From the NCBI GenBank assembly GCA_950097015.1, contig CATNEN010000038.1, forward strand, positions 35,281,954 to 35,345,953: 64,000 bases of DNA, given 5' to 3'. The DNA is from Macrostomum hystrix (lineage: Eukaryota > Animalia > Platyhelminthes). Shown here one piece after another: positions 12,039 through 44,101 of the stretch (its first letter is position 1; each line of letters begins with the position of its first letter). The translations under genes and the position numbers were made by a program. The notes below the pieces were generated by a model. That model saw only the letters and a list, made by a program, of their open reading frames with translations. It ran no database searches and had not been told where the DNA came from.

Positions 12039-13398
12039 TCATAACAGAGATAAGCAGTAGAACAGCAGCAGAAGCCAAGCAAGCAAATGCGTCTTCGAAA
12101 GCCACAAAGTCAATCTCGAATTGCAGTCGCGACGTAGTTGAAGTCTGTCAATGGGTCCGTTGCACAATGGCTGCTGACAGCAGATGATACTGGCACTTTC
12201 GTAGCAGACGCTTGGTACGGGAAGTCGAATGACAGGGCCAGAACTCGACACTATTACCTGTTGAGTTTGGAAGAGATAAGGGGCACAAGAAGTGATTAAC
12301 AGTTGAAAAACAACGCTATTTTCCCTCTGGGGAAAGACCACAGGAGTTGCAAATACCCACTGCCTACTTGACGATAGCTCCCAAACCGAATGACCAGTTT
12401 TCGTGAGAGTATAAACAAGTTTTCGCCCTTTTCGGATAAACTGACTACCTTTTTAAGCCTTCCGAGTAAGCACCGTCGAGATATTCAGCGATGATTATCG
12501 AGTGACAAGGACAACAATTATTGCAATGTATAAACCTTTTTCCATTTTGGTTGAAAAAAAACTAAGAATATAGTCAATACAATAAAACCGAAGTGGTTAT
12601 ATGATGGATTTTGTGGCTCTTGCCACCAGACACTCTTGCTGTTTCTACGGTTAGGAGATAAAAGGATTGACGAGCCCAAATATTAAAATGTGTATTCTTG
12701 AGCAAGGCCTTCATTCTCTAGAGCTTCAGTTCAACCAGCTGTAAAATGAGTGTGAATTAAGCCTCCACAGTCCATCGACTGAAAAGCTTACACAGTAAGC
12801 TAATAATATTTGCTAGAAATTTGTTTTTCGATTTCTTTGTTGATCAATTTTGCGAGTGCTGCAATAATGAAATTTATTCACTGAAACCATCATCCTAAGT
12901 TTGGGGTGGTGAGTAGCAGAGCGGTTAACGCGTTTGCCTCTCGCATCAAGTTCGATTCCACGACGAGGCCACGTTTATTTGGGGCGCAGCCGCGGAGAGA
13001 AGGCTTGGAGGCTTGTCGTGCGCTTTATGCCATAGAGGGCCAACCTCCAAGGCTCAGTGAAAGTGTACACTGCCTGACGATGAGACAGTCAGGGCAGATG
13101 TGTAGTTCGTACACACGTGTGAGTTTGAGTCATTGCCTCCTCGCTGGCTGCGAGTCTACTGTCACCAAATGATGTGCCAGTGTTTACAGCTCTCTTGCTA
13201 TATTGTTCATATTATTAAACAAAGTTTCTGTAACTATGTAATAATGCTCTGTACTGTAAGCACATCACAACTAGCTTACCACGCAGTATTTTCCACTAGC
13301 TGTTGGTGTCTGCTCATCGACTGTCGGACAGTTCTGACAGTTGTAGCAAATGATTCTGGAGTCGGCACTGCTGTTGCCCTGAGCTATGGCGAACGGTG
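12039..13398 (-). CDS. Ly6/uPAR three-finger protein, copy A (divergent; signal exon not located)
   Basis: Exon 13398-13280 (ttctag|...gtg|gtaagc) encodes PFAIAQGNSSADSRIICYNCQNCPTVDEQTPTASGKYCV. Exon 12257-12039 encodes VIVSSSGPVIRLPVPSVCYESASIICCQQPLCN plus a hydrophobic tail. Intron phases (1, 0) match copies B-E. Confidence 0.8.
12325..12665. mobile_element. Second copy of the MITE-like family seen in the WSC intron
   Basis: ctggggaaagaccacagg...aaatacccac...atagctcccaaaccgaatgacc...ttgccaccaga matches 6088-6430. Confidence 0.6.
12901..13215 (+). mobile_element. SINE copy in the intron of Ly6 copy A
   Basis: gcagagcggttaacgcgtttgcctctcgcatcaagttcgattcc head followed by the family body. 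Confidence 0.8.
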
Positions 13399-14334
13399 CT
13401 AGAATTTTTGAGGGGGATTTTTAAGGGTCTTGAAGATATTCAAGGACAGAATTTTCGGATTATGTAGGATTGGAATTTGAAAATAATTTGAAGATACTTT
13501 GAGATGGGATTTGAAGATTAGTGCTCAGCGCTTTGTCCTGAAATGATTTGAGATGGGATTTCAGGATGGGATGGGATTTTAACATAATTGGAGACGGGAT
13601 TTCGGAATATTTTCAGATGAGATTTAACGATAAAAGCGACCAAGAAATTGTTCTTTGCCAATCAATTCTCGTTTTAAGTGTAAGAGACAAAAATGTGAGA
13701 TGTTTTTATTTAAATACTTGCTATGGAACTCACTCAAATAGATTAGCAATCCAAGTATGATTCCACAATGGTTCATGTTGTCGAAAATTTCAGAAAACTT
13801 TCTAATTATTTTTAAACGTGCCTATCAAAGTGTGGACAGAAGCCTATAAATTTATAAGCGTATTCAGGTGTAAGCAGTGATGGATACCTGTGGCAGACAT
13901 GAAGGCTATTTTCGACAAAAAATCACTGGCTACATGAATTAATCCAGCATGTTTGCAATGGGTGCTTTGCTGTGCATTCTCTAGCTGATTGCAAGGGAGG
14001 TCAATATTACTTGCAAACTGTTATGTGCTTTATGTACAGATCTCTCTATCATAGTAGTGCGTACATCTCCTTCTATACTGACTCCTTCCATCTAACCCTC
14101 CGAACATGCAGCATCTCCCCCTTCCCCTGTGTACGGCACGGCCTTCTAAATTCACTTTCCGAACTTTCACTCCGTCAAAAAATCGTGTGCGTTTATGGTT
14201 CTATCACTTTACCAGTAGCGTAGGGAAATTGAGAGATGTACTTTATCGTCTTATATTTACATGTACATGAAGATGTACGTATAAATCTTATCGTACATAA
14301 AAAAATCTGTCATAATTTTATCGCGCCAGAATTT

Positions 14335-14490
14335 CATCTCATCTCTCGAGTATCTCATCTCTCCCCTATCTCTTCTCTCCTGGGTCTCATCTCTCCTGTT
14401 TCTCATCTCTCCCCTATTTCTTCTCTCCTGTGGCTCATTTCTCCTGTGTCTCATCTCTAACCTTTCTCATGTCTCCACTATCTCATATTT
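14335..14490. repeat. CT-rich 48-bp tandem repeat, about 2.5 copies
   Basis: Repeated atctcatctctcc... units. The ORF track shows the 16-aa periodicity ISPVSHLSPISSLL. Confidence 0.75.
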
Positions 14491-14501
14491 CTAAAGTCAA
14501 T

Positions 14502-15331
14502 GCTACAGAACTGAGATTCTTCAGGACTGCAAAGCTACTGGACTGAGATTCTTCAGGACTGCAAAGCTACTGGACTGAGATTCTTCAGGACTGCAAAGCT
14601 ACTGGACTGAGATTCTTCAGGACTGCAAAGCTACTGGACTGAGATTCTTCAGGACTGCAAAGCTACTGGACTGAGATTCTTCAGGACTGCAAAGCTACTG
14701 GACTGAGATTCTTCAGGACTGCACAGCTACTGGACTGAGATTCTTCAGGACTGCAAAGCTACTGGACTGAGATTCTTCAGGACTGCACAGCTACTGGACT
14801 GAGATTCTTCAGGACTGCAAACTTACTGGACTGAGATTCTTCAGGACTGCACAGCTACTGGACTGAGATTCTTCAGGACTGCAAAGCTACTGGACTGAGA
14901 TTCTTCAGGACTGCAAAGCTACTGGACTGAGATTCTTCAGGACTGCAAAGCTACTGGACTGAGATTCTTCAGGACTGCAAAGCTACTGGACTGAGATTCT
15001 TCAGGACTGCAAAGCTACTGGACTGAGATTCTTCAGGACTGCACAGCTACTGGACTGAGATTCTTCAGGACTGCAAAGCTACTGGACTGAGATTCTTCAG
15101 GACTGCACAGCTACTGGACTGAGATTCTTCAGGACTGCAAACTTACTGGACTGAGATTCTTCAGGACTGCACAGCTACTGGACTGAGATTCTTCAGGACT
15201 GCAAAGCTACTGGACTGAGATTCTTCAGGACTGCAAAGCTACTGGACTGAGATTCTTCAGGACTGCAAAGCTACTGGACTGAGATTCTTCAGGACTGCAA
15301 AGCTACTGGACTGAGATTCTTCAGGACTGCA
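14502..15331. repeat. 32-bp satellite (ggactgagattcttca-ggactgcaaagctact), about 26 units, highly homogeneous
   Basis: Near-perfect tandem units between Ly6 copies A and B. Confidence 0.97.
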
Positions 15332-15679
15332 CGATTTAACTTGCTATAGAAATAGATGATGGCAGAAACGGTTTATTTTTTATTGCGTTTGAAGTACGAG
15401 TTTGAGTACGAGTATGAGTTTGCTTATTGCGCAAAAGTATTATAGCTTCAAATGTAGCTATTGAGTAATTAGCAAGTTTTAAATATGCAATGCTAAAAAT
15501 ATTATATTTTTTGGTTCATAAGTGGTAGGATTGGCTTCTTTTTAATGATGCTTAAACAAGAACTTCTATACCACCTCTAGTTCATTCGTCTGTTTTTGCT
15601 TTAGTAGGCATGGTACAGAACGTTCGGATTATTGTAAAAAAAAGCACAGAAACTAGAAAATCATCCATGGAACATTGCT

Positions 15680-18253
15680 TTATAGGCTGCAGTTGCTGAC
15701 AATCTGCTGCAGGACAACCGAAACTATCAGAAGGAACAGAGCACCAGACACTTGATGGCCGGTGTTGCACAGGTTAGATACGCAGCAGTATGAATAATCC
15801 AGTACCTCAAGGCAGAACGGAACAGCGCTTCTAGCGACAATTCCTTTCACAACCAATTTCTGTTTGTTAAATTGTTAAAAAGTAAATTCTATTCAGAGGT
15901 TGCATCGGAAAGATTTAGGGATTAGAAATCATATTCATTTGGTGGCAGACTCAAGTCTATGTGCATGGCCTCCTAAAGATTCCTACTCAGGGACTTTGGT
16001 GTGAGAGGCAAACGTGCGAACAAATCTCTCCCTCAGCCCCAGATAATGAAAAGTTTAGTTTGATATTTTAACCACAAGTAAAATAAATTTTTGTGTTTTT
16101 TCGAATCCAATTGACAGGACTGCAAACTTACTGGACTGAGATTCTTCAGGACTGCAAAGCTACTGGACTAAGATTCGTCAGGACTGCAAAGCTACTGGAC
16201 TGGGATTCTTCAGGACAGCGGATCTACTGGGCTGAGATTCTTCAGGACTGCAAAGCTTCTGGACTGAGATTCTTCAGGACTGCAAACTTACTGGACTGAG
16301 ATTCTTCAGGACTGCAAAGCTACCGGACTGAGATTCTTCAGGACTGCAAAGCTACTGGACTGAGATTCTTCAGGACTGCAAAGCTACTGGACTGAGATTC
16401 TTCAGGACTGCAAAGCTATGGACTGAGATTCTTTAGGACTGCAAAGCTACTGGACTAAGATTCTTCAGGACTGCGGATCTACTGGAATGAGATTCTTCAG
16501 GACTGCGGATCTACTGGAATGAGATTCTTCAGGACTGCGGATCTACTGGAATGAGATTCTTCAGGACTGCGGATCTACTGGACTGAGATTCTTCAGAACT
16601 GCAAAGCTTCTGGACTGAGATTCTTCAGGACTGCAAACTTACTGGACTGAGATTCTTCAGGACTGCAAAGCTACTGGACTGAGATTCTTCAGGACTGCAA
16701 AGCTATGGACTGAGATTCTTTAGGACTGCAAAGCTACTGGACTAAGATTCTTCAGGACTGCGGATCTAATGGAATGAGATTCTTCAGGACTGCGGATCTA
16801 CTGGAATGAGATTCTTCAGGACTGCGGATCTACTGGAATGAGATTCTTCAGGACTGCGGATCTACTGGACTGAGATTCTTCAGGACTGCAAAGCTTCTGG
16901 ACTGAGATTCTTCAGGACTGCAAACTTACTGGACTGAGATTCTTCAGGACTGGAAACTTACTGGACTGAGATTCTTCAGGACTGCAAAGCTACTGGACTG
17001 AGATTCTTCAGGACTGCAAACTTACTGGACTGAGATTCTTCAGGACTGCAAAGCTACCGGACTGAGATTCTTCAGGACTGCAAAGCTACTGGACTGAGAT
17101 TCTTCAGGACTGCAAAGCTACTGGACTGAGATTCTTCAGGACTGCAAAGCTACTGGACGGAGATTCGTCAGGACTGCAAAGCTACTGGACTGAGATTCGT
17201 CAGGACTGCAAAGCTACTGGACTGAGATTCTTCAGGACTACGAATCTACTGGACTGAGATTCATTAGGACTACGAATCTGCTGGACTGAGATTCTTTAGG
17301 ACTACAAATCTACTGGACTGAGATTCTTTAGGACTACAAATCTACTGGACTGAGATTCTTTAGGACTACAAATCTACTGGACTGAGATTCTTTAGGACTA
17401 CAAATCTACTGGACTGAGATTCGTCAGGACTACGAATCTACTGGACTGAGATTCTTTAGGACTACCAATCTATTGGACTGAGATTCTTTAGGACTACGAA
17501 TCTACTGGACTGAGATTCTTTAGGACTACGAATCTACTGGACTGAGATTCTTTAGGACTACCAATCTACTGGACTGAGATTCTTTAGGACTACAAATCTA
17601 CTGGACTGAGATTCTTTAGGACTACGAATCTACTGGACTGAGATTCTTTAGGACTACGAATCTACTGGACTGAGATTCTTTAGGACTACGAATCTACTGG
17701 ACTGAGATTCTTTAGGACTACGAATCTACTGGACTGAGATTCTTTAGGACTACGAATCTACTGGACTGAGATTCTTTAGGACTACGAATCTACTGGACTG
17801 AGATTCTTTAGGACTACGAATCTACTTGACTGAGATTCTTTAGGACTACGAATCTACTGGACTGAGATTCTTTAGGACTACGAATCTACTGGACTGAGAT
17901 TCTTTAGGACTACGAATCTACTGGACTGAGATTCTTTAGGACTACGAATCTACTGGACTGAGATTGCGTTTATGTCCACTGCAGCGCTTGTTTTTAGGTT
18001 CGTGATACATGACTCACAAGGCAGTATGAACTCTCTATTATTTCGGTTGTATCGTCCACACTATTGCAGCCTATGCAGACATAGCACTTTGCGGCGTTGG
18101 TTCCAGCGATGCAAACTAAAATGTTAAAAATCGTTGTATGAAGCTTTAAAACTAATGAAAGCTGAATTTCTAAATTGAAAAAAAATGATGAGACTGTCTT
18201 GACTAACATGCAGACAGTATTCCGATCGAAAGAATGGAACGAAGTTTCAACAT
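15680..18253 (-). CDS. Ly6/uPAR three-finger, probably GPI-anchored protein, copy B (107 aa, 3 exons)
   Basis: Exons 18253-18208, 18115-18018 and 15859-15680, all with GT-AG boundaries, total 324 nt. Protein: MLKLRSILSIGILSAFCIAGTNA-AKCYVCIGCNSVDDTTEIIESSYCL-KLVVKGIVARSAVPFCLEVLDYSYCCVSNLCN-TGHQVSGALFLLIVSVVLQQIVSNCSL*. Confidence 0.9.
16115..17965. repeat. 32-bp satellite in intron 2 of Ly6 copy B, about 58 units
   Basis: Tandem units. The exon-2-proximal part is homogenised to the variant ...ttctttaggactacgaatctact. Confidence 0.97.
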
Positions 18254-19399: not shown

Positions 19400-22300
19400 A
19401 ATTCATTGTCTCCGACCATTTTGGTAGCAGAGCGACTAAATCCGGCCCAAGCGACAAGTTTGATCCACGCCATGTCGAATCCATGCGCATTCGTCAGTAC
19501 GACCGACAGATGCTCAGAGGATACAGATACTTGTATTTACTTCTTGTTCAGTCGGCTGTGCAAATGACTCTGCATCGAAGACTTTGCCTTCAGCCTCAGT
19601 AGAAGCAGTAGAATTGAGCTCCTTGAACTCTGACGGCTCCTTGGCCTGTGAAGTCTCCTGGTCTAGAGTCCTGGTAGTGATGTCGGATTGGTGCACTAAC
19701 CGGGCTCGATCCAACCGGGAATTTGGTTGGGATTCGATTTCACACGAATGTACACAGGCTTAGCAGATTCTGTTGGTGGGTGAAACTCTGTTGCAGAAGT
19801 AGAAAAGAGCGTGCGCGGAATTTTCAGGATGACCTGGCCAGCAGGAATGGCTCCGATTGCAGATGGTGTGGTGTTTTGTGTCAGGCAGAACGCGTTGATT
19901 GAATGGTCCACATCACCAGCTGATCTGTTTAGCGACAGCTTGAGCTCTTGAATCACTCGCTCATTGTCGACCAATGCCGCTGCGTGGCGTGGTGGCGTTC
20001 CTGCGACTCTTCGTTGACAAGCCTGGCCTCGGAGCGGCCTCTGTGAACTTCTCCCGGCCTCTGCTCAGCCCGCTTGGACATCCTGGACATCTGGTGATGT
20101 CCAGGAGGCGCTAAAACGTGTTGTATTTGGTTTTGTTTTACGAAGCGCTGGAATTCTTCCGAACGAAAATTAGTTCCGTTGTCTAAGAGAAAAAACTTGG
20201 GCAAACCAACATTACTTAAAACTCCTCCTGCAAGCCTTGATGACAGAAGAAGATGCGAGGAAATTGCGAACTTGCACATCAATCCAGCAAGAAAATACGA
20301 GGAACTTAAAGTATTGGTACATCGCAATGTCGATGTGAACACGTTCAAGAAATTCCTAAGCATCCGTCCAACTGGCTAGGTTGGCATTGGGCTTCTTGAG
20401 TGCGTGTAGCTGGCATGTGGCGCATCTGTTAATGTGCAAGTCCATGGATGGCCACAAGAAATACTGCCGTCCAAGACGAATCGTTCGGATGATGCTGCGA
20501 TGCTGCTCGTGGAGAAATTTCAGAATTTTGAGTCTCATTGCAACGGGAGGAGCGATTGGAATGTAGACGATTCCATTCTGGATGGTGTATTCGGATCGGT
20601 CTTAACTATACGGCTGCATAGATCGTCCTTGAGCGTCTAAAATGCCAGGCAAATAAGTGCGAGTTCTGTGACTTTGCAAAAGACTTTATTCTCTCACTGT
20701 TCATCTTCGGCTTGAAGAGCCAGTCTCTTCGTCAAAAGTTATTTGCCAAGGACCAGTTCACGCTCGAAACTTCGAGTGACTGAATCTCAGGATCCTTGGA
20801 AGCAGAAATTCTTTGAAGAAGTGTCTGTCAGATTGTCTGAACTCCTGAAGACTGTTAATCTCTTGCATGTTTACACAGCTAGTCCTTGCGGCTTCTCGAC
20901 AACTTGGCAATCTCAATTGTCTCTCCTTGGGGCGAGCATTGGGTCGAAAGGAGCGAGCATTGTCTCTCCTTTCGAATAGCACACCCTGTAGTTTTATGAG
21001 CTTAGAGTAAGAGCCCAACGCTGCGGACGAGCAGAAACACTCTCTGAAGTGTTCCTTGGGTTAAAGATGTACATCAGGGGCGATGGTCAGATAGAATCAG
21101 ATAGCTCTCAGGTGACCTGATTTACCACACGAGAAACATGCGCCCTTTAGCTGCATCCTGCGAGAAATTGTTGAAAGTATTTTACTCCTTTAACTATTGC
21201 CAACGCCTCGCGCTCGATGTTAGAGTAGTTGGACTCGGCATGCGTCAGCATCTGACTAGCGAGCCAGACAGCTCGCCTTTGGTTCTCGTCATATAAGAGC
21301 ACGAATCCAATGCCATCCTTTGACGCATCGCAAGTGAGATATAGCGGCTTCGAGATGTCGTACGGAACTACTACTCTAGCAATGTTGGCTTTTAATTTGT
21401 TAAATGCCAGTCTATGAGTCTCTGTGCAACTCAATTGTACGTTCTTCATGGAAAAGTTCTTGCAAAAGAGTTCATAATTTCAAAGGGTGGATATAGCACT
21501 TCGCAGCTTGTCCTTGTCCCTTGGCTCTGGTAGCTCAGTCAAAGCCTCCATCCGAGTACAGTTGTCCGTATTAAAGTATGAAGCCGAGGAACTTGACACT
21601 TTCATTGCACTTTTGCGACTTTTGGGTGTTGATTCTGAAGCCATACTGCGAAAATCGGTTCTTTACGAGGGACAGAACTCGGTGATGCTCTTTCAGACCT
21701 GGTGTTCCGAACATATCGTCCTGGTACGAAGCGACGTTCGGTCGAATGTCGCGGGGAAGTTTATCCATCACTTCTTGGAAGATCAACGGTGCCGCAGAGA
21801 TTCCGAATTGCACTCGACAATAGTCTTCCTTGAGAATGGTAATGATCGGGCTGGGTAGCACATGCTTTCGAATGACACTCCGGATTTCAGGCGAAAGCTT
21901 GCTCTGAATTTGTCTGCCTCATTGACAGAGACATGAGAGCACTTTAAGCTTGAGTCCAAGTCAGGTATCAGGTGCAGTGCTCAATTGAAGTTCAAAACGA
22001 GAATACTGTGCGTGTCCGGCTCTCAAACGAAAATGTCTCCGACTGCGCTCTTCTCGCTGTTGTCCTTGACCGTAGCATACCTCAGCACTCCGAGAGCAGC
22101 TGCCTGTGAGCCCCCACACTTTCAGAGACTTTGTGTTGTCACTTTGGATTTTAAGGCCGGTCCTTTCATAGTGATGGCAGTGATTTGGCTCCCAGAGTCG
22201 ACGCAGATAGTAGTTTTCAAATCACCAATTCGAAGCTCTTCAACCAAAGGATACTACTTGCCGTTCCGAACTCAACAGATAGAATGCTGCCGGGTTGATC

Positions 22301-23250
22301 ACGTTTGAGGCTTTAGTTTGAGGCTGGCATGCAGTGCACGGGTTTTGCAGCCAATCGGCATGCGGATGCAATGTGCCCTTGCTTTCCGAACTTGTTGCAG
22401 ACTGCCTGACTGAATCTGCAAGCGGTTCTCAGGTGACCTGATTTACCACACGAGAAACATGCGCCCTTTGAGGCTTGATTGGCGCCAGAAACGGAGTTAG
22501 CGCCGGCTTCTGAGTCTGGTTTTCGGACCGCCTTTGAAACGGCCGTCGTGAATTTGAAAGCTGCTTCCTTCCGATGCAGTAGGGGTACAGTGGTGATGGT
22601 TTTCTGGGGTTCGGTAGCGACGTGCACGGATTCTGATAGCTTCCTGAACGGAAGTTTCGAGCGTGAACTGGTCCTTGGCAAATAACTTTTGACGAAGAGA
22701 CTGGCTCTTCAAGCCGAAGATGAACAGTGAGAGAATAAAGTCGTTAGCAAAGTCACAGAACTCGCACTTATTTGCCTGGCATTTTAGACGCTCAAGGAAA
22801 GTCGAAATCAATTCAGCAGACTTTTGTGTCTTAAAATGCAGGACATTCCATACGTATTGCAGGAGTCTTTTTGGCTTGAGGTGCTCCAGGATCATCTTTT
22901 CATTGCTTCCAAGGTGCAGTTGTTCGCGCTGATGCCAGTAGGCTTCATCGAAGTTTCAACTAGAGTAAGTCACAACTGTAATTGGGTTAGGAGCTTTGGT
23001 ACACCGGTATCGGGACTAATTCCTCTGATTCTGAAGCCAGGAGAATTAACTAAATAGACTAGTTAGTTCAGTTGATCCTCGTCGTCGTGTTATAAGTCTA
23101 AGACGTAGGAATTTCTAGTGTTGTGCGAAATCGTAGCAGCAATTATATTGATAAGCGCTTATATAACAATATATAACAGTCCGCAATCCAGGCAGCACAG
23201 CCCTTTTAACGATTCAATGAGTGCCTTGTCTTTGGTTAGCACGTTAAATT
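19400..23250 (-). mobile_element. Degenerate Ty3/Gypsy LTR retrotransposon (Mag-like)
   Basis: Order on the minus strand: PBS-like cgacgaggatc near 23080; gag with [14 protein letters not shown] and [14 protein letters not shown]; protease CVDSGSQIT; RT FGISAAP...YQDD; RNase H CDASKDGIG, NYSNIEREALAI; integrase HEQH...CATC and DNGTNF. Many frameshifts. Paired LTRs not confirmed, so boundaries are approximate. Confidence 0.9.
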
Positions 23251-23254
23251 TAAT

Positions 23255-24722: not shown

Positions 24723-24724
24723 GC

Positions 24725-30759: not shown

Positions 30760-30823
30760 TGTTAAACTTGCTGTTGCCTTGAATTTTGCATCAAGCCAAA
30801 GCAATATTTCATCAGTTCATCAG

Positions 30824-32755: not shown

Positions 32756-32833
32756 CATTCCGGTACCGCTAAGTTTTGTAAAGGCAAGGTAGATTTCGTC
32801 AACCTTTCTTCAAGCCTTACTGGAAGCTAAAAA

Positions 32834-35800
32834 ATGTTGAAACCTCGTTCAATACTGTGGATCGGAATACTGTCTGCAAGTTAGTCAAGTCGTTATCATT
32901 ATTTTTTCCTTTTTCAATTTTGAAATTAAGCTTTCATAAATTAAGCTTGCTAGCACGAAATTCAACATTTTAGTTTGCATCGCTGGAACCAACGCCATCA
33001 AGTGCTATTCCTGCCAACATTGCCTAAGAGAAGACATTGACCGTAGAACCAACACAATGGAAGGACTTTACTGTGTTGTGAGTCTTGTATCACGAACCTA
33101 AAAACATGTGCTGCAGTGGACAAAAGCGCAATCTCAGTCCAGTAGCTTTGCAGCCCTGAAGAATCTCAGTCCATAGCTTTGCAGTCCTGAAGAATCTCAT
33201 TCCGGTAGCTTTACAGCCCTGAAGAATCTCAGTCCATAGCTTTGCAGTCCTAAAGAATCTCAGTCCAGTAGCTTTGCAGTCCTTAATCATCTTATTCCAG
33301 TAGCTTTGCAGTCGTGACAACAACAACAAAATACGCTAGCCCCAAATTTCAGGGAGGCAGCGTCAGATGGTGCGCCGCAGAGCCAGCGCGCGAACATGGT
33401 CCGCGCCGGTGGCAGTGTCGGGCGCCCCGGCGTCGCTCAGCAGGCAGTCGACGTAGCGGCGGGTCCGAGCCTGGCCGCGCCTGAACGGGCCCTGCAGGGT
33501 GAGCAGCAGGACGTCCTGGGCGGGCTGGCGGCAGTAGCTCTCGGCCCGAATAACGTGGCCCGCTAGTCGAAGTCGCCGCTGGTGCAGGATGGTGGACGGG
33601 CGTTGCAGATCGGCTCTCTCGTACAGAGACTTAGTCCCGACGCTCTCGTCAGCTTGAAAGGCCGCACGGAGCAGCCCCGAGTGCGCCGAGTCCAACTGCC
33701 GCTCCAGCGTAGCCGTCAGCGTCCACGACTCGGCGTTGTACAGCAGGACGGTCTCGACCACCGCCTGCCACAGCCGAGCCCTCTGGCGGTCAGGCTGCGC
33801 TGTGGACTGGAGGACGGCCCGGATCGAACGTTAGGCCGCCCATGCGAGTCCTCTGCGCCGCCGGATGTCGTCTTCCACGTTGGGCACCAGACCGCCGACG
33901 TAAGTGAACCGCTGGCAGCGTGCGAGCGAGATAATCTGCCTGTCTGCGCCGCGGCACGTCATGTCCTCTGGGATGTCAGCCGGCACGGTCAGCACCTCGG
34001 TCTTAAGCGTGTTGATCACTAGGCTGACGCTTGATGCCTCCTCAGCCAACCTGTCAATATGGCGCTGGGCACCTTCGACAGTTGAGGACAGGAGGGCGAG
34101 GTCGTCAGCTTCAGCTTGAGGCGCTTCTCATCGTGGCGGCGACCCATGCGTCTGCGGAGCAGGAAGCCGTCTTCAGCCGAGGGGAGCGCAGTCCGAAGCA
34201 CCCAGTACAGGAGAAGCACGAAGAGGAACGGCGCCAGCGTGTCGCCCCGCAGCACTCCTGACGAGGTGGCAAACAGGTCGGACAGGCCGTCCGCCGTAAC
34301 ACAGCAGCACGCGTGTCGCGATACAGCGACATGATAGCGGCGACTAGCTGCTCCGGGACCCGGTAGGCACGAAGGACGAGTGGGAGCGCGGCCCTCGACA
34401 CTGAGTAAAACGCCTTGCGGAAGTCGACAAACACTATGATCTGCGTTGACTGGCGCATGCGCGCCTCCTCGATGACACGGCGGAGTGCGAGGATCTAGGT
34501 CACTGTACCGCGCCGCGACCGGAACCCGTTCTGCATCGACTGCAGGCGATCGAGAAGCAGTCGGTTGAAAAGCTTCGTGGTGCAGGACATAAGCGAGATC
34601 CCTCGGTGATCTTCTTTCCGCGTTGTCCCGGCCTTATTCGGGATCGGCACGATGTGTGCTACGGTCCACTCGGTGGGCGCAGGGGCGCCGACGAGCACGC
34701 GGTTCATGGCGCCTGTGACTTGGGAAGCCACACAGCGGAGCCGCAGCGCCTCGACCGGAACCTCGTCGGGGCCGAGCGCCTTGCCGCCAGATGTTCTCCG
34801 AGCGAACCGCACAACATCCTCCACGGTGACTGGGCTGGTGCGAAAATCCTCCTCAGCTGGCAGGGCCGTGTCCGTCGGCAGTGCAAAACTGGGTGGCAGC
34901 GGGGGCGAGGGTGCGTTTTCAATGCCGGCGAAGAAGTCGCGCAATTCATTCCTGCGCTCCTCCGGAGTGTCGCCGGTCAGATTTAGCGCCACACGCCTCT
35001 TGCGCCCCGTCAGGGTCCGAACGGTCGTCCACACTGCGCAGCTCCTCACGTCGGGGCCAGCTGCTGCGATTGACTGGATGGCGTCGTCGACTGCGGCCTG
35101 CTGCCGCGTGTCCAAAAGACGCGCGAGCGCCTCCTCGGCGTCACCAGTGGGCCGTCGGGAACTTCGGAGTCGCTCGATCTTCAGCCGCGCCTGCCTGATC
35201 GTTGGATCGCTCTGCCAGACTGGCTGCGTTCGCTCCGCCGGTCGCATCAGCGGGACCGTCTTCTCAGCTGCAGTTCTCACGGCAGTGCTGATGTCGGCAT
35301 ACTCCGCCTCGCGCTGGTTTCCAAGCGCGCCAGCGAAGGCGCCCGCGAATTGGTACTTTACGCGGGGGTCCCACAAGGCACGATAGTAGCGCCGTGGCCG
35401 CTGCTTCGGAGGTCGGTAGAGCGGGTCGTTGAGCCGCAGGTCGCAGAGCAAGTCGGTGGTCAGAACGGAGAGCCAGCGGAGCCATGGTGTCGCAGTTGAT
35501 GACGCGGTGGTGCTCGCGAGCGCGAACCAGCACATGATCGAGTTGCGCCAGCCGCCTCGTGGCATTCCGCCCACGCGCGTTCCGTCGTCTCCTCTTGCAG
35601 CCCGCGAAGGTGACCAGGCGGGCCGAAGGCTTGCGGAAACGGGAATTGACATCAGGTCCAGCCTTTCTAGCAGGTTCTCCAGCGCATCCGTGTTGGCTTT
35701 CTCGCGTCCCGTGACGAAAGGCGATCGCTCGAACCTACGTGGTAGGTCCGTACGGCGCGTTTAGGTCTCGGAGCGCCGCAAGCTGTCTTCCAGCTGTCCG

Positions 35801-37646
35801 GCCAGAAACTCGAAAAAGGCGAGAGCTTCGTCCGGGTGGGCAGCCGTAGGGGCGAACGCGCAGAAAAGCCGGATGCAGCGAGCGCGCAGGCGCAGGTCAA
35901 CCCACAGCAGACGCGGGGAGAGTGGGGCGCAGTGCACGCTCTGCCGAAGACGCGGTCCGATCAGCACGCCGACGCCGCCACGCCCGCGGCCGTCTACCGA
36001 CGTGTACAAGAGGCTCCATCCGGCTCCAAGGTCCTCGTTTTGAAGGCCTGGCTCAGCCACGATAGAGACCTCCTGCAGCATTATGAGGTCCAGCTGTAGG
36101 TCGTGGGCCAGCTGGACGAGCAGAATGCGACGCCAGGGGGGCCTTCAGGGTCCGGCAGTTCAGCGTGCCGAGCCTCAGGCGACCACCTGGTACGGCTAGG
36201 GCCAGATGACGTTGGGACTCATGGGCCACGGCGCCACCCTGCGGATCCGATTCAGAAGCGGCAGAGACCCGGGACGACTGGCGTCTTGAAGCACCGCGAA
36301 GTCGCCCACGCCGGTTGCGCTGCGCTATTCCTCTGCTCGTCCCTGATGTGCCGATCTTGGCTGCCGCAGCCGAGGCGCGGCCGTCCGAGCCAACCGAGGT
36401 CATCTGCAGCCTGATGGGCTGACCACGATGCCAGGAGGTGTCGACACTTTTTGCACAGATGTGCAAATATAATGGCTCTGCAAATATAATAGCTCTGCAA
36501 ATATAATGGCTCCAATTATGGCTCCAATGGACGTCTTCCTGAAAAATCTCAATCCAGTAGCTTTGCAGTCCTGAAGAATCTCATTCCAGTAGCATTGCAG
36601 TCCTTAATCATCTTATTCCAGTAGCTTTGCAGTCCTGAAGAATCTCAGTGCCGTAGCTTTGAAGTCCTGAAGAATCTCAGTCCAGTAGATCCGCAGTCCT
36701 GAAGAATCTCAGTCCAGTAGCTTTGCAGTCCTGAAGAATCTCAGTCCAGTAGCTTTGCACTCCTGAAGAATCTCAGTCCAGTAAGTTTGCAGTCCTGAAG
36801 AATCTCAGTCCAGTAGCTTTGCAGTCCCGAAGAATCTCAGTGCCGTAGCTTTGCAGCCCTGAAGAATCTCAGTCCAGTAGATCCGCAGTCCTGAAGAATC
36901 TCAGTCCAGTAGCTTTGCAGTCCTGAAGAATCTCAGTCCAGTAGATCCGCAGTCCTGAAGAATCTCAGTCCAGTAGCTTTGCAGTCCTGAAGAATCTCAT
37001 TCCAGTAGCTTTGCAGTCCTGAAGAATCTCAGTCCAGTAGCTTTGCAGTCCTGAAGAATCTCAGTCCAGTAAGTTTGCAGTCCTGAAGAATCTCAGTCCA
37101 GTAGCTTTGCAGTCCCGAAGAATCTCAGTTAAGTAGCTTTGCAGTCCTGAAGAATCTCATTCCAGTAGCTTTGCAGTCCCGAAGAATCTCAGTTAAGTAG
37201 CTTTGCAGTCCTGTCATAAGGATTCAAAAAAATACAAAAATTTATTTTGCTCGTGGTTAAAATGTCAAACTAAACTTTCCATTATCTGGGGCTGAGGGAG
37301 AGATTTGTTCGCACGTTTGCCTCCCACACCAAGATCCCTGTGCTGGAATCTTTGGGAGGCCATGCACATAGACTTGAGTCTGCCACCAAATGAATATGAT
37401 TTCTAATCCTTTAATCATCACGATGTAACCTCTGAATAGAATCAACTTTTCAACAAACAGAAAGCGATTTTTAGAGAACGCGTCAGTCGAACCGCTGCTC
37501 ACGTTTGCAAGAAGGAAAAGAATTATTACTGCTGCCAAACTGACCTGTGCAACACCGGCCATCAAGTGTCTGGTGCTCTGTTCCTTCTGATAGCTTCGGT
37601 TGTCCTGAACATCCTGCAGCAGTTTGTCAGCAGCTGGAGCCTTTAA
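32834..37646 (+). CDS. Ly6/uPAR three-finger, probably GPI-anchored protein, copy D (111 aa, 3 exons)
   Basis: Exons 32834-32879, 32974-33077 and 37461-37646, total 336 nt. Protein: MLKPRSILWIGILSAICIAGTNA-IKCYSCQHCLREDIDRRTNTMEGLYCV-KAIFRERVSRTAAHVCKKEKNYYCCQTDLCN-TGHQVSGALFLLIASVVLNILQQFVSSWSL*. Confidence 0.9.
33130..33312. repeat. 32-bp satellite (inverted), about 6 units, left of the RTE
   Basis: aatctcagtccagtagctttgcagtcctgaag units. Confidence 0.95.
33317..36530 (-). mobile_element. RTE-clade non-LTR retrotransposon, frameshifted, antisense in intron 2 of Ly6 copy D
   Basis: Endonuclease LRLGTLNCRTL and LQEV. RT HRGISLMS, QNGFRSRRGT, FVDFRKAF, LRGDTLAPFLF, ADDLALL. C-terminal VETVLLYNAESWTL. 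(TTG)n 3' tail at about 33317-33330. Three 17-bp tgcaaatataatggctc repeats at the 5' junction. Confidence 0.92.
36537..37213. repeat. 32-bp satellite (inverted), about 21 units, right of the RTE
   Basis: Tandem units continuing the array that the RTE interrupts. Confidence 0.97.
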
Positions 37647-38034
37647 TGCAATTTCCCATGGATGATTTTCTAGTTTCCGGGCTTCGATTTATTAAACAAT
37701 TTATCCGCGTGTTCTGTGCAGCCTAAAAATAATGACTAAAACACCACAGTGCTTATGGAGTATAATCGAGAATAAGATTAAACTGTTAAAGAATAAAATG
37801 TTTGTTTTTGTAAGTCTAGCAAATTTAATCCCATTTTTTCTCTACAGCCCCGCAATCGAATATTTTTTGTATGCAACTAATTTTTTCCATTGTGTAAGTG
37901 TACCGGCAAATACAATTGAAATGGACAAATTTCACGAGTAAAGGATTAAAGCGTTGCTAAAGTTAAATACTGCTCATAATTATTTTCCTGGCGAATCCGA
38001 TAACTACGCTCGTAGTAGCGAACGCTATGAAGCA

Positions 38035-38095
38035 GGTGAGTGGTGGTAGAGCGTTTAAAGTGTTTGCCTCTCGCACGAAGGTCCCTGAGCTCCAA
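38035..38095 (+). mobile_element. SINE tRNA-head fragment downstream of Ly6 copy D
   Basis: ggtggtagagcgtttaaagtgtttgcctctcgcac, with the same flank as 28200-28260 (inverted). Confidence 0.7.
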
Positions 38096-38763
38096 GGCTA
38101 AATTATTTTTAGACGCAGCCGCAGACAAATAATCTGCGGCTGTCTTTGTCGTATAAGACAAAGGGCTTGGGCCCACTAGAAAAAATCCTAGGGGGCCGCT
38201 AGAGGATTCTTAGGGGATTGGGGGAATACTAGGGGAAGTAGAAAACTGCAGAATATATATTGTTTAGTATTATAATACAATAAATCAATGCTCTATGTTT
38301 GTTAGATGCGTCTTTTATAGTTAAGTCTTTGTGGGTTATTTGTCGGCGTTCAAGGGGCTGTACCCTTAGGGGTCGCCCGCTAAATACACCACAGTCGTCC
38401 GCTAAACAAGGAAAAAACGTGAATTGCATTTTAACAATACATATATATAAAATATTGGTGGCTTAAATACTAACCTAAAAAAACAAATTATTTGACTTTT
38501 GCCTACTACTTTTTAAAATTCAAGTTACTTCTCATGATTTTTTGTTTTACTTACACTACTTTTCCAACTGAACCCTGCGATTTATCGAACGTTTCAAGGC
38601 ACCCGCACATGGCAACAGGTTATTATGTAGCCCAGAAGTAGATATTCATCAGATAAAATAGAAATATTATAGCTATTCTAGCTCTCAACCAATATTATTT
38701 GAATAACAGTTGGTCTGTTAAACAGGCTCTGTTCTCTTTATTGTCATTATCATTCTAATATCA

Positions 38764-39176
38764 GGTACCTGGACACTTCGTCATCTTACAACTTCGTCAT
38801 CCAGATGACGATCTGTCCAATATCTCAGAGGGTGGATGACGAAGAGACTTAGACTTGTGGACACTTTGTCATCTATAAAACAAAAGTTTTCAAAGTTAGA
38901 ACAGAACCACCCCTCCCCACCTCCTCACATAGTGTTGGCACCTTTCTTTCAACTCTTATAATGAAATCAGTTTTGACACCTCTTTTTGGCCTTTTAAGAC
39001 GTGAAGTGTGTGACTCTGCCCCACCACCACCCTACCCTCACTTTATTGATGACGAGCTTAATTGCTTATTTGTTATTAGTAGATGACGAACTGACCAAAC
39101 TTTAAAGCATGCCAATTGGCTGGATGACGAATTTGTAAGATGACGAAGTTGTAAGATGACGAAGTGTCTAGGATCC
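38764..39176. mobile_element. Mutator-like MITE (413 bp) with a 9-bp target-site duplication
   Basis: About 38-bp TIRs: ggtacctggacacttcgtcatcttacaacttcgtcatc and gatgacgaagttgtaagatgacgaagtgtctaggatcc. Exact TSD ctaatatca at 38755-38763 and 39177-39185. Confidence 0.88.
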
Positions 39177-40380
39177 CTAATATCATGGCCTATGGGCCTT
39201 ATAATTTTTGCTATACCTAAGGCTAAGCCTAGGGCCTACTTATACAAAATGGTTACGCTTTGCTAGGCCTACTACTAGCCTACTGCATCAAGTAGCTGAA
39301 CTTATTGTTATTTAAATTATAACTTACTGAGCAGCTGAGCCTCAGAGCCTGGTTAGGTAGGCCTAGCCTAGCCTAATAAAAATAGACTAGCTAGATTGTT
39401 TGTTTGAAAAGTTTGCTAGTTAAGCTATCTATCTATGCCCTCAGTTGATATTTTGAAGCAACCAGTTTCATTGGCTATCATTCTTGATTTATTTTTCTAG
39501 GCTTTGAAGGTCAATCTGTGTGCTATTTTGTGCTATATGTGCATTGTCTGTGTCGTATATAATACTGTTTCTCAGTGTTTCTATGTGTTGCTTCTTAGAA
39601 AGGAGCCATGCCATGGTATACCCCTTGCTTTTGCACTGCATGTGCCAAGAACCATAGTATATGCCATGGTTTTGTATCACATGCACCAGGAACATTGTTA
39701 TATACAATGATTGTGCAAAGAATGTACCAGGGATCCTTCATGTGAAATGGAATTTTCTATCCTATTGCCATTGGCCTTCCTGACTATAGTCTATGCTAAA
39801 TTAGGCATACTTTTAAGAATACGCATTACATTACATGTAAACTATTTTGTACTACAAATTTAGACTTAAGTTTGCATGTTAAGCTACAAATCAAAGTAAA
39901 GGTAAATCTGAAAAGAATGATTTGTATTTGGCAAAGTCACTAAGTGCAAAATTCTTCAAAGGCAAGAGAGGCCTAAATTTGAAAAGTTTGAAAATTTGAA
40001 ATTTGAAAAAATGATCAAAATTTTAGCTATCCCTAGCTTCAAAATAGATTTTGTCAATAATCTATTGACAATAATCTAGCTATCCCTAGCTTCAAAATAG
40101 ATTTTGTCAATAAATGTTGTCATATTAAAATGAGCTTGTAGTTTTGCTTAAAATATATAAGCTCCCAAATTAGTATTATTCAAGATCCCAAATGATTAAG
40201 TTCAAACTATATTTTTTAGAAATTAAATGAATCTTATTTGTATATCTTTAGATTTCAAGTAAATATTACAGAGACTTCAGAGATTATAATATACAAAATT
40301 CATGCATACCTTATATATTGTAACAATCTTAACAAAATTATGCAAAACATGATAGTCTTCATTCTGTCAAACTGGCTTCA

Positions 40381-40597
40381 GTGCGATTTTAATCAAACTG
40401 ATACTGAGATCAAAAATATGTTTGCTGGGCCCTTGGAAGAATTAGTTCGAGATGCAACCCACAAGGTCCATCCTAACGCAGATGACAAAGCAGTGAGGAA
40501 GGCTGTTGCTGCAGCTTTGAAAAATTCTCGCTACAGACTTGGTGGGCACAACAAGAGACAAGTTCGCTCTTTGTCATACGGCGAATCTAATGGTTGA
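40381..40597 (+). pseudogene. Isolated coding fragment resembling the C-terminus of DUF4806/BEN-like transposon accessory proteins
   Basis: LEELVRDATHKVHPNADDKAVRKAVAAALKNSRYRLGG recalls that helical motif. It lies in an AT-rich 38.2-42.1 kb block that starts cccactagaaaaa. Recognition by eye only. Confidence 0.3.
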
Positions 40598-42293
40598 GAA
40601 TGAGGGAGAACATTCTCGCAGGACTCAGCAACGCTGCTCTTGAAAATTACTTCATCCAAGGATTGAAAGTGATTCTGATTGACCTGAGGACTTTATTTTT
40701 CATCATTTTTCTATAGCGTTGTATCACCCTGTTCCATTTTTGCAATTATTTTTTGTGGTTTTGTTGTGCACCGTTTTTTGAGTCTAGTTATTTATTAACA
40801 AATGAGACTTGAGTTTGACAGAAGACCTCTAGGACTAAAGCAAAGCGAGCAAAAGAAACAAGGCTCGAAATCTGAGTTAAAAACAAAAGTAGATTCTGTT
40901 CTATATGAGTATGATTTAAACAAACTGTCAGATCTGCTTGCAGTTATTGAATATTTCATGTTATAAGTGCGTAGAATTTTGTGTCTTGTGAACATGAAAT
41001 ATGTCAATTTTCAATCTATTTCTTATAATATTTTCATTTGTTACTTATGTTAAAGTGAATGCTAATTATATTAAATTAAGCTAGCATACATAGCATACAT
41101 TTTGTAAGAACAATTGGTAGCCATTTCAGCTTATTTCTTAAAGTGCATGGATGGATAAAATGTACATTAGGATAAAAAAAAGCTTGATACGTCTATTGTG
41201 TTTTTCCTGTTACTTTGGAAATATTACATGCAAGCATTTAAATATTCATTTTAAGCATACCAAATGTATTTTTCGATTTTGCTGCTGTAACATTTGACAA
41301 TTTTTTCTTGTATGCTCTGTTATTGTGTGCTAATTAGTTTGCACAAAATAATTCATGTGGGTAATTTTACTTCTCTGAAAATAAGTTTTAATCCCTAAAA
41401 GTTGCATTTCAAATGCTATATACTAAAACTGAACTCTTGTTTTCAAAATTGCACTTTTGAAAACATCTCCCTATTTATAATAACAATGGTTAAAGGCCAA
41501 GTTTAACCTTATCGATGCTATATGGTTCAACAAAGGTTTTTCATAACAAACTTAAATCTTAAATTCCTTTACTATACTGGACCAGTACTTAATAATTTAA
41601 ATATTAATTCGTTATTTTTATCCTGTTGTTGAAAATGTGAAAATTTAGTTTAATATATAGAACATGAGACAAGGTTACATTGGAATTGAAATCTGTACTA
41701 AATTGTTTTGCACGAGCAAAACTCTATCTACTTGTGATTTGTTTTCAAGTGGTTTGTTTATAATTTCTCATTTTGTGCACTGATGACATGCTGTGTGGCG
41801 TGGTTTATAAAAATATTCTGTCAGTGAAAGTATTGCTGTTGTGTGCATTAGGTACATGTATTCAATCAATTTTATATCCAGACACGACAAAAGGGGTGAA
41901 ACTGAAACTCATGCTAACATTACTCGGCGCCAATACAGTGAAAATCTATAGTGGTTCGCGAACGAGGGCCCCTGGGGGGGCCATCTAGGGGCTGCACCGC
42001 CGGCATGCTAGGGGCCCCATGGGGACTGTGAGGGGCAACCTTGGGTGGCACCGGGGTGGGATCTAGAAACGGCGCGAATCAAACTTGAACATTTCAGTTT
42101 TAGTATAGCGCAGCAGATTTATGTGGTAGCTAGTCGAAAGGGCTCCTTCTAAATTCATTATTTCTGTATGCGAAATCTTATCTCTAGAGTGCAGAATTTT
42201 AATTCAGTTGACTGTCATTCAAATTTTCGAAATCGTGGCATTTTAATTTTCAATTTAATACAGGCTTATTGTTTGAGTTTCAAAATTCTGATT

Positions 42294-43545
42294 TGTGACT
42301 TACTACTATGAGTAGGCTGTGTGAGTGGATTTCATGTTAGTGTCTTCGGGTTATGCGGTTACCGTAGGATGCCACGGGCTGTCTGATGGGTCTCTAGTAT
42401 GAACGCTGGCTATTGGTGTCGCGGGAGGCCTGCGTACCTGGGTCCGAAAGTGCCGCATAACTTTGACCAAGTCTGACTTAGGTGAGGACCTGTTAGGAAG
42501 CTGGGATCCGGAACCCAACCGCAACCCAGTTAGGCAGCCGCGAGTCTAACGACACGCGAATACAGCTGCGCCCCGAAGCTGTGCTTAGGCTTTTTTGGAC
42601 CCTAAGGACAGGCTAGAATCTAGTCGGCACGACTCTCTTAGTGTAAAGGGAGTCTTGGAGAGGCTAAACAGAGGACCGGGCATTGTCCCTACGGCCTCCT
42701 AACCGAGCGAGTTCCCAGGCTTATGGATCCTGGATTCCACGGTCTCGTAAATCGCGAGGGGAGCCCCTGGCAATGCAGCCGGGAAACGATGACTCCGCCG
42801 AGCGAGTCGGGGATTATCCCTTCCTTGTGTGCTCTATTGAGTCGTGTGCTTTCTGAGGTGGGGTGGGTAGGCCAAGGCCTAGGACAGAGCACTCCATAGT
42901 CTACAGAAGCAGGTGGCATGAGAGTGATGTGGTAAATCTGCCCTACGCAGTAAATCCGGCTAGTCCTAGATCCGCCGTTCACTCTGGGCAGGCTGTACCT
43001 ATAGTGTAACAGGTCGCTATAGGGTTGCAGAACGAGTGCTAAGTTAAAACCTAGACTTCTATGTCCCAAGCTTGAGTGCGCGCGAGCAGTTGTTGATGGC
43101 CAAGACTGGAAGCAAAGCTAGCCAGGTCCCCGGGCCCTATTTCTTTTCTTATTTATTTATTCTTTGTTACCCTTATCGACCACTGCATCGCAGTGTTGTT
43201 TATTGGGGCCTAGGAATTCTCCTTATCGTTCATTAACGTAGAGGTGACGCAAGGTCGTCAGGCTCTTTCCCTTTTCACGACCCCAAGTCGTGCTCTGAGC
43301 AGTGCTCAACCCCGCCTCCTTCTTTTCCCCATTGTCGCTGTTTAGCGTCACCCCCCTCTCTGACAAGCAAAATCCTCGTCCCTCTTTTGGTCGAAATGTC
43401 CGACCAGGAAAATGAGGTCTTCGAGACAATCGGCGCCCCGCGTCTAATTGGAGGTAGGGCTGTCTCCGCGGAGAGGAAGTCTTGCGTAAGATTTTTGATA
43501 AATGCAGCACTAGGGCTTGCACCTTCCTTGTGTAGAGGATGTGTA
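42294..43545 (-). mobile_element. Probable 3' LTR (about 1.06 kb) with PPT and a short internal stub
   Basis: On the minus strand a polypurine tract agagagggggg (43361-43351) is followed at once by TGAC (43350). A matching GTCA(CA) end lies at 42294-42299. The block is GC-richer than its flanks. No second LTR in the window. Confidence 0.45.
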
Positions 43546-43863
43546 GAAAATCTCACAGTACAGGATGTGTACTGTGAGATTTTAAACTTTTTTACTTAAA
43601 ACACTCGAGTAGTCTTAAATTTGACCAAGTAGCAGTCTTGCCCATAGAAATCTCTCAGTATTTCAGACGGCTCAAATGGACCGAACAAACGATTAAGAAA
43701 TATGTTCTCCAGTGTTAAACTTGCTGTCGTTTCTTGCCTTGAATTTGGCATCAAGACAAAGCAATATTTCATCAGTTCATCAGTCATTCCGGTACCGCTA
43801 AGTTTTGTAACGGCAACGCATATTTCGTCAACCATTCTTCAAGCCTTACTGGAAGCTAAAAAA

Positions 43864-44101
43864 ATGTTGAAACTTCGTTCAATACTGTGGATCGGAATAC
43901 TGTCTGCAAGTTAGTCGAGTCGATATCATTATTTTTTCCATTTTCAATTTTGAAATTAAGCTTTCATAAAAAAAGCTTGCTAGCACGAAATTCAACATTT
44001 TAGTTTGCATCGCTGAAACCAACGCCGTCAAGTGCTATTCCTGCTTTATTTGCGATAGTGTTGACAGTAAAACCGGCATACTGGAAGGAACTTACTGCGC
44101 T
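43864..44101 (+). CDS. Ly6/uPAR three-finger protein, copy E, exons 1-2 (exon 3 not in the window)
   Basis: Exons 43864-43909 and 44004-44101 encode MLKLRSILWIGILSAICIAETNA-VKCYSCFICDSVDSKTGILEGTYCA|gtgagt. Same intron-2 leader as copies B-D. Confidence 0.85.

Follow-up and report, generated by a model that had tools for sequence, protein, structure and literature searches.

Three-finger proteins of the LU type are encoded by genes described as having three exons, one for the signal peptide and two for the domain, with the signal for a glycosylphosphatidylinositol (GPI) anchor in exon 3 (PMC6600238). The same source gives the domain 60–90 residues, ten plesiotypic cysteines bonded 1-5, 2-3, 4-6, 7-8 and 9-10, an internal intron at the tip of loop 2 and an asparagine directly after the last cysteine, and it records departures from ten cysteines in snake toxins and in the first domain of uPAR-type proteins. 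Accelerated evolution is reported for the three-finger toxin genes of snake venoms (PMC2711939, PMC3847720), and massive duplication with pervasive positive selection on the fingers, together with an odd cysteine spacing and rewired disulfides, for the salamander courtship pheromone PMF (PMC4029566). Conserved introns and signal regions combined with hypervariable loops are thus a known feature of three-finger gene families. Among invertebrates, repertoires of dozens of LU genes per genome are described from many phyla, many of them with a signal peptide and a GPI site and with functions given as unknown (PMC13719153). Here, we describe a cluster of genes of this general build in a 64-kb stretch of the genome of the flatworm Macrostomum hystrix (assembly GCA_950097015.1, contig CATNEN010000038.1, positions 35,281,954 to 35,345,953), which is called the window below and is numbered from its first base.

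The window contains five genes of one three-exon plan (A–E) and one tail remnant (Table 1). The most probable explanation is that these are transcribed genes for CD59/Ly6-like proteins, predicted to be GPI-anchored and three-fingered, the loops of which have probably diverged under diversifying selection, whereas all other parts of the gene remained constant. The original prediction of five copies and one remnant with GT-AG intron boundaries agrees with the gene models, as GT-AG is found at every intron boundary of A–E. Genes A–D have three exons each, with intron 1 in phase 1 and intron 2 in phase 0, and all of their spliced frames are open (126, 107, 110, and 111 amino acids in A, B, C, and D, respectively). 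Exon 1, the signal exon, measures 46 nt in B–E and 43 nt in A, and because of these lengths it ends in phase 1 and intron 1 has the same phase in all five copies. Intron 1 is 92–94 nt long in B–E, exon 2 (98–119 nt) ends in phase 0 and is followed by a long intron 2, and exon 3 completes the domain and encodes a hydrophobic tail up to the stop codon. Gene A, with introns of 335 and 1022 nt and no satellite in intron 2, appears from its protein sequence to be an older, divergent paralogue, with 33%–35% identity to B–D and the same cysteine spacing.

Genes C and D are arranged head to head. Only exons 1 and 2 of gene E lie within the window; a 32-bp satellite begins 52 nt past exon 2 and runs from 44154 to the window end, which is why exon 3 of this copy is not seen. 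The remnant lacks the trailer of intron 2, the loops, and exons 1 and 2. A motif census in six frames of the 64 kb identified four occurrences of CC-x(3-6)-CN, all of which are exon 3 of A–D, and 12 occurrences of C-x2-C-x2-C, five of which are exon 2 of A–E, and no further copies of the gene family were found in the window. The four peptides quoted in the original prediction are each encoded exactly where it implied: the constant tail peptide at 15725–15772 (minus strand), 28711–28758 (minus), and 37545–37592 (plus), and the three loop peptides just upstream of it.

Divergence among the copies is distributed very unevenly along the genes. By the variable part, we mean all codons that lie after the C-Y-x-C motif and before the CC doublet. 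Around it, exon 1 matches at 40/46 to 46/46 positions, the 51–52-nt leader of intron 2 at 45/51 to 51/52, and intron 1 at 86/93 to 89/93 among C, D, and E, compared to 70/88 to 72/89 (~80%) for B. The trailer of intron 2 (245–253 aligned nt in B, C, and D) is identical at 222/247 to 230/253 positions (90%–91%), and the tail of these three genes is identical over most of its length. Taken together, C, D, and E are 92%–100% alike over the 5′ untranslated region (UTR), exon 1, intron 1, and the 52-nt leader, and B is 80%–92% alike. The earlier description of leader, introns, and trailer as nearly identical is therefore apt for C–E, but overstated for intron 1 of B and for the trailer. In contrast to these parts, 33%–43% of the bases differ in the variable coding sequence, compared to 7%–17% in introns and 1%–11% in constant coding sequence (50/126, 28/390, and 6/201 for the pair C–D). 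Loop-coding divergence thus amounts to 3–5.5 times intron divergence (Fisher's exact test, p 3e-16 for C–D and ≤5e-3 in 6/6 pairs), and only 13–17 of 42–43 residues are shared in the variable part. That exons diverge faster than introns, as originally proposed, holds for the loop codons in every pair.

Copy C is transcribed and spliced as modelled, since both of its junctions are seen in contigs of three public runs. Contigs were compared over 30029–33129 and 37214–44153; X5, X8, and X11 belong to three different studies, X11 being a declared RNA-seq library, and X1 is a DNA-type run. A 372-nt X8 contig joins 30443–30272 to 30178–30081 and omits exactly the 93-nt intron 1 of C, which has GT..AG ends on the gene strand. 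A second X5 contig stops at 30272, and its 12 loose letters are the start of exon 2. At 30081, the exon-2 donor of C, contigs of X5, X8, and X11 become loose for 102, 102, and 91 letters, respectively, and the consensus of these loose ends matches exon 3, as predicted, over its first 30 nt. The DNA-type X1 contig runs unspliced through exon 2 of C into both introns. The 5′ UTR of C is at least 126 nt long. Confirmation of splicing by RNA-seq, which had been suggested as a check, has therefore been obtained for this copy.

In the region of D and E, RNA-type contigs cover constant parts only (43718–43909, 44004–44044, and from 37526/37530 onward); over the variable parts, they jump or become loose and belong to other paralogues. 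No RNA-type contig is listed over the variable parts of D (33015–33077, 37461–37526) or E (44045–44101), which leaves these data silent on the expression of D and E. One loose end (X5), judged against the segment alignment, is a B-type 5′ UTR, and another is a loop-3 sequence absent from the window. It follows from these two ends that at least three family members are expressed and that the family is larger than the window.

The assignment of the proteins to the CD59/Ly6 group is based on profile and homology searches performed exon by exon on single-exon translations, and on the cysteine frame. The Pfam CD59 profile matched exon 3 of D (E 3.3e-4, 20.8 bits) and of C (E 3.1e-3, 17.6 bits) at profile positions 79–123 of 127, and exon 3 of A and exon 2 of C had no LU match in Pfam. 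In a phmmer search of exon 3 of D against PDB, 10/10 matches were CD59; the best was the full precursor (E 3.3e-4), in an alignment that covers YYCC..DLCN and extends into the GPI-signal tail. A profile built from the translated exon 3 of all four genes gave 38 weak matches in PDB (E ≤10, best E 0.002), and 38/38 were CD59, snake three-finger toxins, lynx1, or activin/BMP-receptor ectodomains. The nearest clusters to exon 3 in a language-model Atlas were Ly6, QVR, Toxin_TOLIP, and CD59 at 0.85–0.90, which we treat as a lead only. By heuristic criteria, hydrophobic N- and C-terminal stretches are present in 4/4 full models (A–D), and the tail after the CN motif has the spacer and hydrophobic run expected of a GPI signal. 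In GPI-anchored proteins, an N-terminal signal peptide is combined with a C-terminal signal made up of small residues where the anchor is attached, a short polar spacer, and a hydrophobic end.

The domain comprises ~54–56 residues from the first cysteine to the asparagine and contains eight cysteines, spaced C-2-C-2-C-14/16-C-16-C-7/8-CC-4-C in B–D and following the same plan in A. The CC-x4-CN signature, with asparagine after the last cysteine, is found in 4/4 copies that have exon 3. Apart from the cysteines, B–D and the older paralogue A have Tyr, Asp, Thr, Val, Arg, Leu, and Asn residues in common, the kept positions including the Tyr after the first cysteine, the Asp and Thr of loop 1, the Tyr before the fourth cysteine, and the Val and Arg of loop 2; their retention even in A marks these residues as scaffold. 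One codon past the fourth cysteine, the coding sequence is interrupted by the internal intron, in a position that, as far as loops can be assigned from sequence, resembles the base of a loop more than its tip. By position, the 4-6 cysteine pair seems to be absent. A rewired disulfide pattern would be equally possible, as reported for PMF, an eight-cysteine relative with odd spacing (PMC4029566). The predicted Ly6 identity is thus supported by gene plan, CC-x4-CN signature, and CD59-like tail, but the proteins have eight cysteines instead of ten.

Queries with exon 3 of C, D, or A retrieved no relatives of these proteins from two large protein libraries. A search for homologous proteins gave no candidate for the exon-3 frame of C and four for exon 3 of A, none with E ≤0.01. 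The sole match of exon 3 of D in a full HMMER search of 1.84 billion representatives, a 1149-amino acid STAND/TPR repeat protein, was judged spurious. In metagenome contigs, a 26-nt tail pattern had no matches, and the exon-3 protein had 592 pattern matches, none of which was confirmed. A literature search, which was not organism-specific, identified general Ly6 and toxin work and no paper on this gene family. As none of the protein libraries searched contains these genes, annotation pipelines probably miss them.

Diversifying selection on the loops is likely, albeit unproven from the coding sequence alone. Codon models were fitted with our own scripts rather than codeml, to three non-independent pairs of ~42 codons. 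In a two-class model, a class with a ratio (omega) of nonsynonymous change (dN) to synonymous change (dS) of 5–22 holds 44%–68% of the codons, at a dS of 0.22–0.35, and this model outperforms one restricted to omega ≤1 with likelihood-ratio test (LRT) statistics of 6.5, 5.2, and 2.6 (p 0.011, 0.023, and 0.11). With dS fixed to intron divergence, the LRT statistics of this comparison are 113, 64, and 74 for the three pairs. By the Nei–Gojobori method (NG86), the exon-3 portion of the variable part has a dN/dS ratio of 1.4–1.7. Codons are either untouched or heavily changed (15, 10, 11, and 6 codons with zero, one, two, and three differences in C–D), and the dS estimated at the NG86 level derives mostly from multi-hit codons. 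Where codons of the variable part keep the same amino acid, synonymous changes are found in only 2/16 (C–D), 2/15 (B–C), and 3/13 (B–D), which places the neutral background of the variable part near the intron level. We therefore read the variable part as being of about the same neutral age as the introns, with the excess lying in amino acid-changing codons, as diversifying selection predicts. A second X1 contig over exon 2 of D (33007–33057), with about half of the summed depth and at least eight differing sites, could be an allele or a further paralogue; the listed differences comprise eight sites in five codons, 5/5 of which change the amino acid, and include three adjacent double changes.

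If this explanation is correct, the constant signal peptide would route the protein into the secretory pathway, and a GPI anchor would replace the constant hydrophobic tail immediately downstream of the CN motif. The disulfide core of ~55 residues would then display three variable loops that bind a changing partner, for which self or non-self molecules, gametes, pathogens, or a receptor are candidates. New copies may arise by local duplication and inversion.

Several results weigh against this explanation. Only three to four sequences are available, their pairs are not independent, and the codon scripts are our own. By NG86, dN is 0.54–0.66 and dS 0.49–0.56 in the variable part, so that their ratio is just 1.06–1.19, and the one-ratio maximum likelihood (ML) omega of 1.5–2.0 does not differ from 1 (p 0.21–0.40). 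The dN/dS comparison proposed as a check on the original prediction thus returned ratios above 1 that are not significant, and diversifying selection, as claimed there, is strongly supported with introns as the neutral rate but equivocal in coding-only tests. The ML dS of the variable part (0.22–0.43) is 2–5 times the intron divergence, and fixing dS at the intron value is marginally rejected for C–D (p 0.042, compared to 0.25 and 0.08 for the other pairs). Some patches have random-level identity (one of 18 nt matches at 5/18 positions), and at the intron rate these patches would need an omega of 12–55, which is unusually high for point substitution. Concerning the protein family, the Pfam CD59 scores of D and C are below the gathering cutoff of 33.9 bits, a Pfam scan of exon 3 of B alone gave no match, and the exon-2 profile retrieved no LU protein from PDB but a single meaningless match at E 5. 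Moreover, the domain has eight cysteines rather than the ten of the plesiotypic LU domain.

Part of this evidence is what would be expected if the variable patches were created by segment replacement or a local mutational process, with selection only sorting the products. In that case, sequence unrelated to them would take the place of short exon segments, or these segments would undergo multi-base changes in clusters, with anchors and introns left in place. Such a process, which we consider unlikely but which is the alternative to be taken most seriously, would account for patches of 6–18 nt at random-level identity between perfectly conserved codons, for the over-dispersed differences per codon, for the elevated ML dS of the variable part, for the 6-nt insertion within the first patch of D, and for the adjacent double changes that make up 3/5 changed codons of the second X1 contig. 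The same picture has been reported for viperid toxin genes as "accelerated segment switch in exons" (PMC2474615). However, no donor for any variable patch was found in the 64 kb, the best matches reaching 18–24 bits compared to ~22 for shuffled queries, and a dS at intron level with high omega fits almost as well. To our knowledge, no mechanism for such switching has been described. Age offers a different way to the same pattern: the loops could be old cassettes, with gene conversion or unequal exchange homogenizing introns, leader, and tail in concerted evolution and selection removing conversions that extend over the loops, so that intron divergence would understate the age of the copies. 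Paralogue exchange does occur, as the two sides of intron 2 of B differ in history (see below), and breakage in intron 2 is seen in the array-bounded half-genes (E, the remnant, and an orphan array). The tail is also identical in B, C, and D while the adjoining trailer differs by 9%–10%, and constant coding sequence is somewhat less diverged than introns in C–D and C–E (p 0.04). Against old cassettes, conserved and variable codons are interleaved at intervals of 1–9 codons, far below usual conversion tracts; the conserved codons show few of the many synonymous changes that old cassettes should have accumulated; and the 72 loop-coding nt of exon 3 in B cannot be aligned by BLAST although the trailer and tail on either side are only ~9% diverged. 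This makes the cassette explanation rather improbable.

The remaining alternatives concern the function of the products. They might be set free to act as ligands, for instance as toxins, pheromones, or antimicrobial peptides, with the C-terminal tail as a mere pro-piece. Both snake toxins and salamander PMF, which are the best known of the hypervariable three-finger families, are indeed secreted (PMC4029566), and toxins, repellents, or attractants have been suggested as roles of invertebrate three-finger proteins (PMC13719153). Yet no other part of the protein is as well conserved as the tail, which can be aligned with the GPI signal of the CD59 precursor and which, by heuristic criteria, shows the spacer and hydrophobic run of such a signal; release therefore seems improbable as well. 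It could also be argued that the genes are decaying duplicates under relaxed constraint, a pattern without function, given that one remnant and one half-gene are part of the cluster and that transposon debris is found around and inside the genes. Relaxed constraint cannot raise divergence above the neutral rate, however, and the loops exceed the introns severalfold; in addition, the frames, all eight cysteines, and the splice sites are intact in A–D, and copy C yields a spliced transcript. We therefore rejected relaxed-constraint pseudogenes, which are highly improbable. GPI-anchored proteins with loops under diversifying selection thus remain our preferred explanation.

New in this locus is a 32-bp satellite in intron 2 of all copies B–E, with different histories on its two sides. 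The satellite occupies the same place in each of these introns and in the remnant, always in gene orientation, and satellite spacings of 95–96 nt suggest a higher-order unit of three. The array of D is split by a 3.2-kb insertion; since Pfam gave no family for its frames at E 0.001, the term retroelement (Table 1) is our own reading of these frames. On the 5′ side of the satellite, the numbers of sites at which B, C, or D is the odd one out are 46, 5, and 9, with a divergence of 18% for B–C compared to 7% for C–D. On the 3′ side, the corresponding numbers are 17, 11, and 13, and the three genes are nearly equidistant at 7%–9%. This contrast for B is significant (contingency chi-square 13.2, p 0.0013). 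Paralogue exchange with a break in intron 2 explains both the differing histories and the array-bounded half-genes, and the satellite itself may be the site of exchange. In that case, recombination within the satellite-filled intron could bring 5′ halves (finger 1) and 3′ halves (fingers 2 and 3) together in new combinations. Extending this further, the satellite might be a recombination hub that joins finger-1 exons to finger-2/3 exons of other paralogues and so generates surface-recognition variants combinatorially in the germline, the hypervariable loops being a further layer of variation. We regard this idea as speculative and, on balance, unlikely, but if true, it would represent an invertebrate, Ly6-based counterpart of shuffled recognition loci.

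Table 1. Coordinates of the gene copies, their variable parts, and the satellite arrays and insertion in the 64-kb window (numbered from the first base of the window).
Feature	Position	Strand	Details
Gene A	12039–13776	-	Exon 1 13734–13776, exon 2 13280–13398, exon 3 12039–12257; open spliced frame
Gene B	15680–18253	-	Exon 1 18208–18253, exon 2 18018–18115, exon 3 15680–15859
Gene B, variable parts	Exon 2 18018–18074; exon 3 15788–15859	-	Constant tail 15680–15787
Gene C	28657–30443	-	Exon 1 30272–30317, exon 2 30081–30178, exon 3 28657–28845; 5′ UTR to at least 30443
Gene C, variable parts	Exon 2 30081–30137; exon 3 28774–28845	-	Tail 28657–28773
Gene D	32834–37646	+	Exon 1 32834–32879, exon 2 32974–33077, exon 3 37461–37646
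Gene D, variable parts	Exon 2 33015–33077; exon 3 37461–37529	+	Exon 2 part with 6-nt insertion; tail 37530–37646
Gene E, 5′ half	43864–44101	+	Exon 1 43864–43909, exon 2 44004–44101 (variable part 44045–44101); donor GT intact
Remnant	23701–24435	-	32-bp array 23997–24435, fused without a gap to the end portion of the exon-3 tail and 3′ UTR (23701–23998)
Satellite in intron 2 of B	16127–17966	-	1.84 kb
Satellite in intron 2 of C	29099–30028	-	0.93 kb
Satellite in intron 2 of D	33130–33317 and 36537–37213	+	0.19 and 0.68 kb, split by the 3.2-kb insertion
GC-rich insertion in intron 2 of D	33318–36536	Frames on -	3.2 kb, ~64% GC; long broken retroelement-like frames
Satellite after exon 2 of E	44154–64000	+	At least 19.8 kb, ~619 units, 91% matches, uninterrupted to the window end
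Satellite of the remnant	23997–24435	-	0.44 kb
Orphan satellite array	14498–15615	-	1.1 kb, directly 3′ of gene B; oriented as the arrays of the minus-strand genes; no exon beside it

The surroundings of the genes contain further repeats and open frames. Debris of a long terminal repeat-type retroelement is located at 19953–22708 (minus strand), where Pfam recognized integrase, RNase H, reverse transcriptase, and a gag zinc knuckle, each in a broken frame of its own. A short interspersed repeat is found at 3339–3737, 11270–11650, 27889–28230, and ~12880–13130, with frames that share similar peptide strings; one of its copies is located in intron 2 of gene A. A 21-bp tandem repeat occupies 1729–2123 (18.9 copies, 96% matches). 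The open frame at 5566–6027 (plus strand) encodes a WSC domain (Pfam E 2.7e-11) and probably belongs to a neighbouring gene as one of its exons; the Atlas clusters closest to it occur most often in Cnidaria and Hemichordata, again a lead only. Between the heads of C and D, an open frame at 31201–31770 (minus strand) has a sub-threshold match to DUF3504 (27.5 bits, cutoff 29.7, E 3.7e-6). Finally, the stretch 40381–40959 (minus strand) between D and E is transcribed, as contigs of X5 and X6 (496 and 579 nt) match it with zero mismatches.

The cluster provides a compact test case, as the codons in question lie a few dozen bases from introns that serve as a built-in neutral yardstick, and it bears on a long-standing debate over the origin of three-finger loop diversity, with selected point substitutions on one side and the switching of segments on the other. 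If the proteins act in recognition at the cell surface, self/non-self discrimination, gamete recognition, and pathogen recognition are candidate roles for them in this flatworm. The intron satellite with its two-sided histories offers a testable idea for the reshuffling of exon halves.

Conotoxin gene superfamilies also combine a constant signal region with a hypervariable mature peptide on a cysteine framework, but the genes described here differ from them in fold and exon plan, and conotoxins are secreted products. The likeness to GPI-anchored LU proteins such as CD59 is much closer and includes the three-exon plan, the phase-1 first intron, the clustering of the genes, and the CC-x4-C-N end with its asparagine (PMC6600238), as well as a tail that aligns with that of the CD59 precursor. 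Unlike LU proteins, the products have eight cysteines instead of ten, an unusual C-x2-C-x2-C start, and a very short domain; the internal intron is found one residue after a cysteine and apparently not at the loop tip, no library relative is known, and the half-domain Pfam scores are sub-threshold. The invertebrate repertoire census surveyed annotated proteins with Pfam-clan profiles (PMC13719153), and as the genes in this cluster lack a library relative and score below threshold exon by exon, such a census would probably miss them. Snake three-finger toxins belong to the same fold superfamily by sequence signature, and their genes are likewise made up of three exons; among paralogues, the introns are highly similar, whereas exon segments either resemble each other closely or are "distinctly different" (PMC2474615). 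In contrast to these toxins, which are secreted and have no GPI signal, the present genes are from an invertebrate, carry a satellite in intron 2, and encode a constant hydrophobic tail of GPI type after the CN motif in A–D. Salamander PMF resembles the predicted proteins in its small size, its eight cysteines, and its atypical cysteine spacing (PMC4029566), yet it is a vertebrate gland secretion for which conserved parts are reported for transcripts, whereas here introns and the predicted membrane-anchor signal are conserved. Judging from the sequence, this family thus appears to be set apart from those known so far by a GPI-type tail rather than secretion, an eight-cysteine C-x2-C-x2-C frame, the lack of library relatives, and a recombinant intron satellite.

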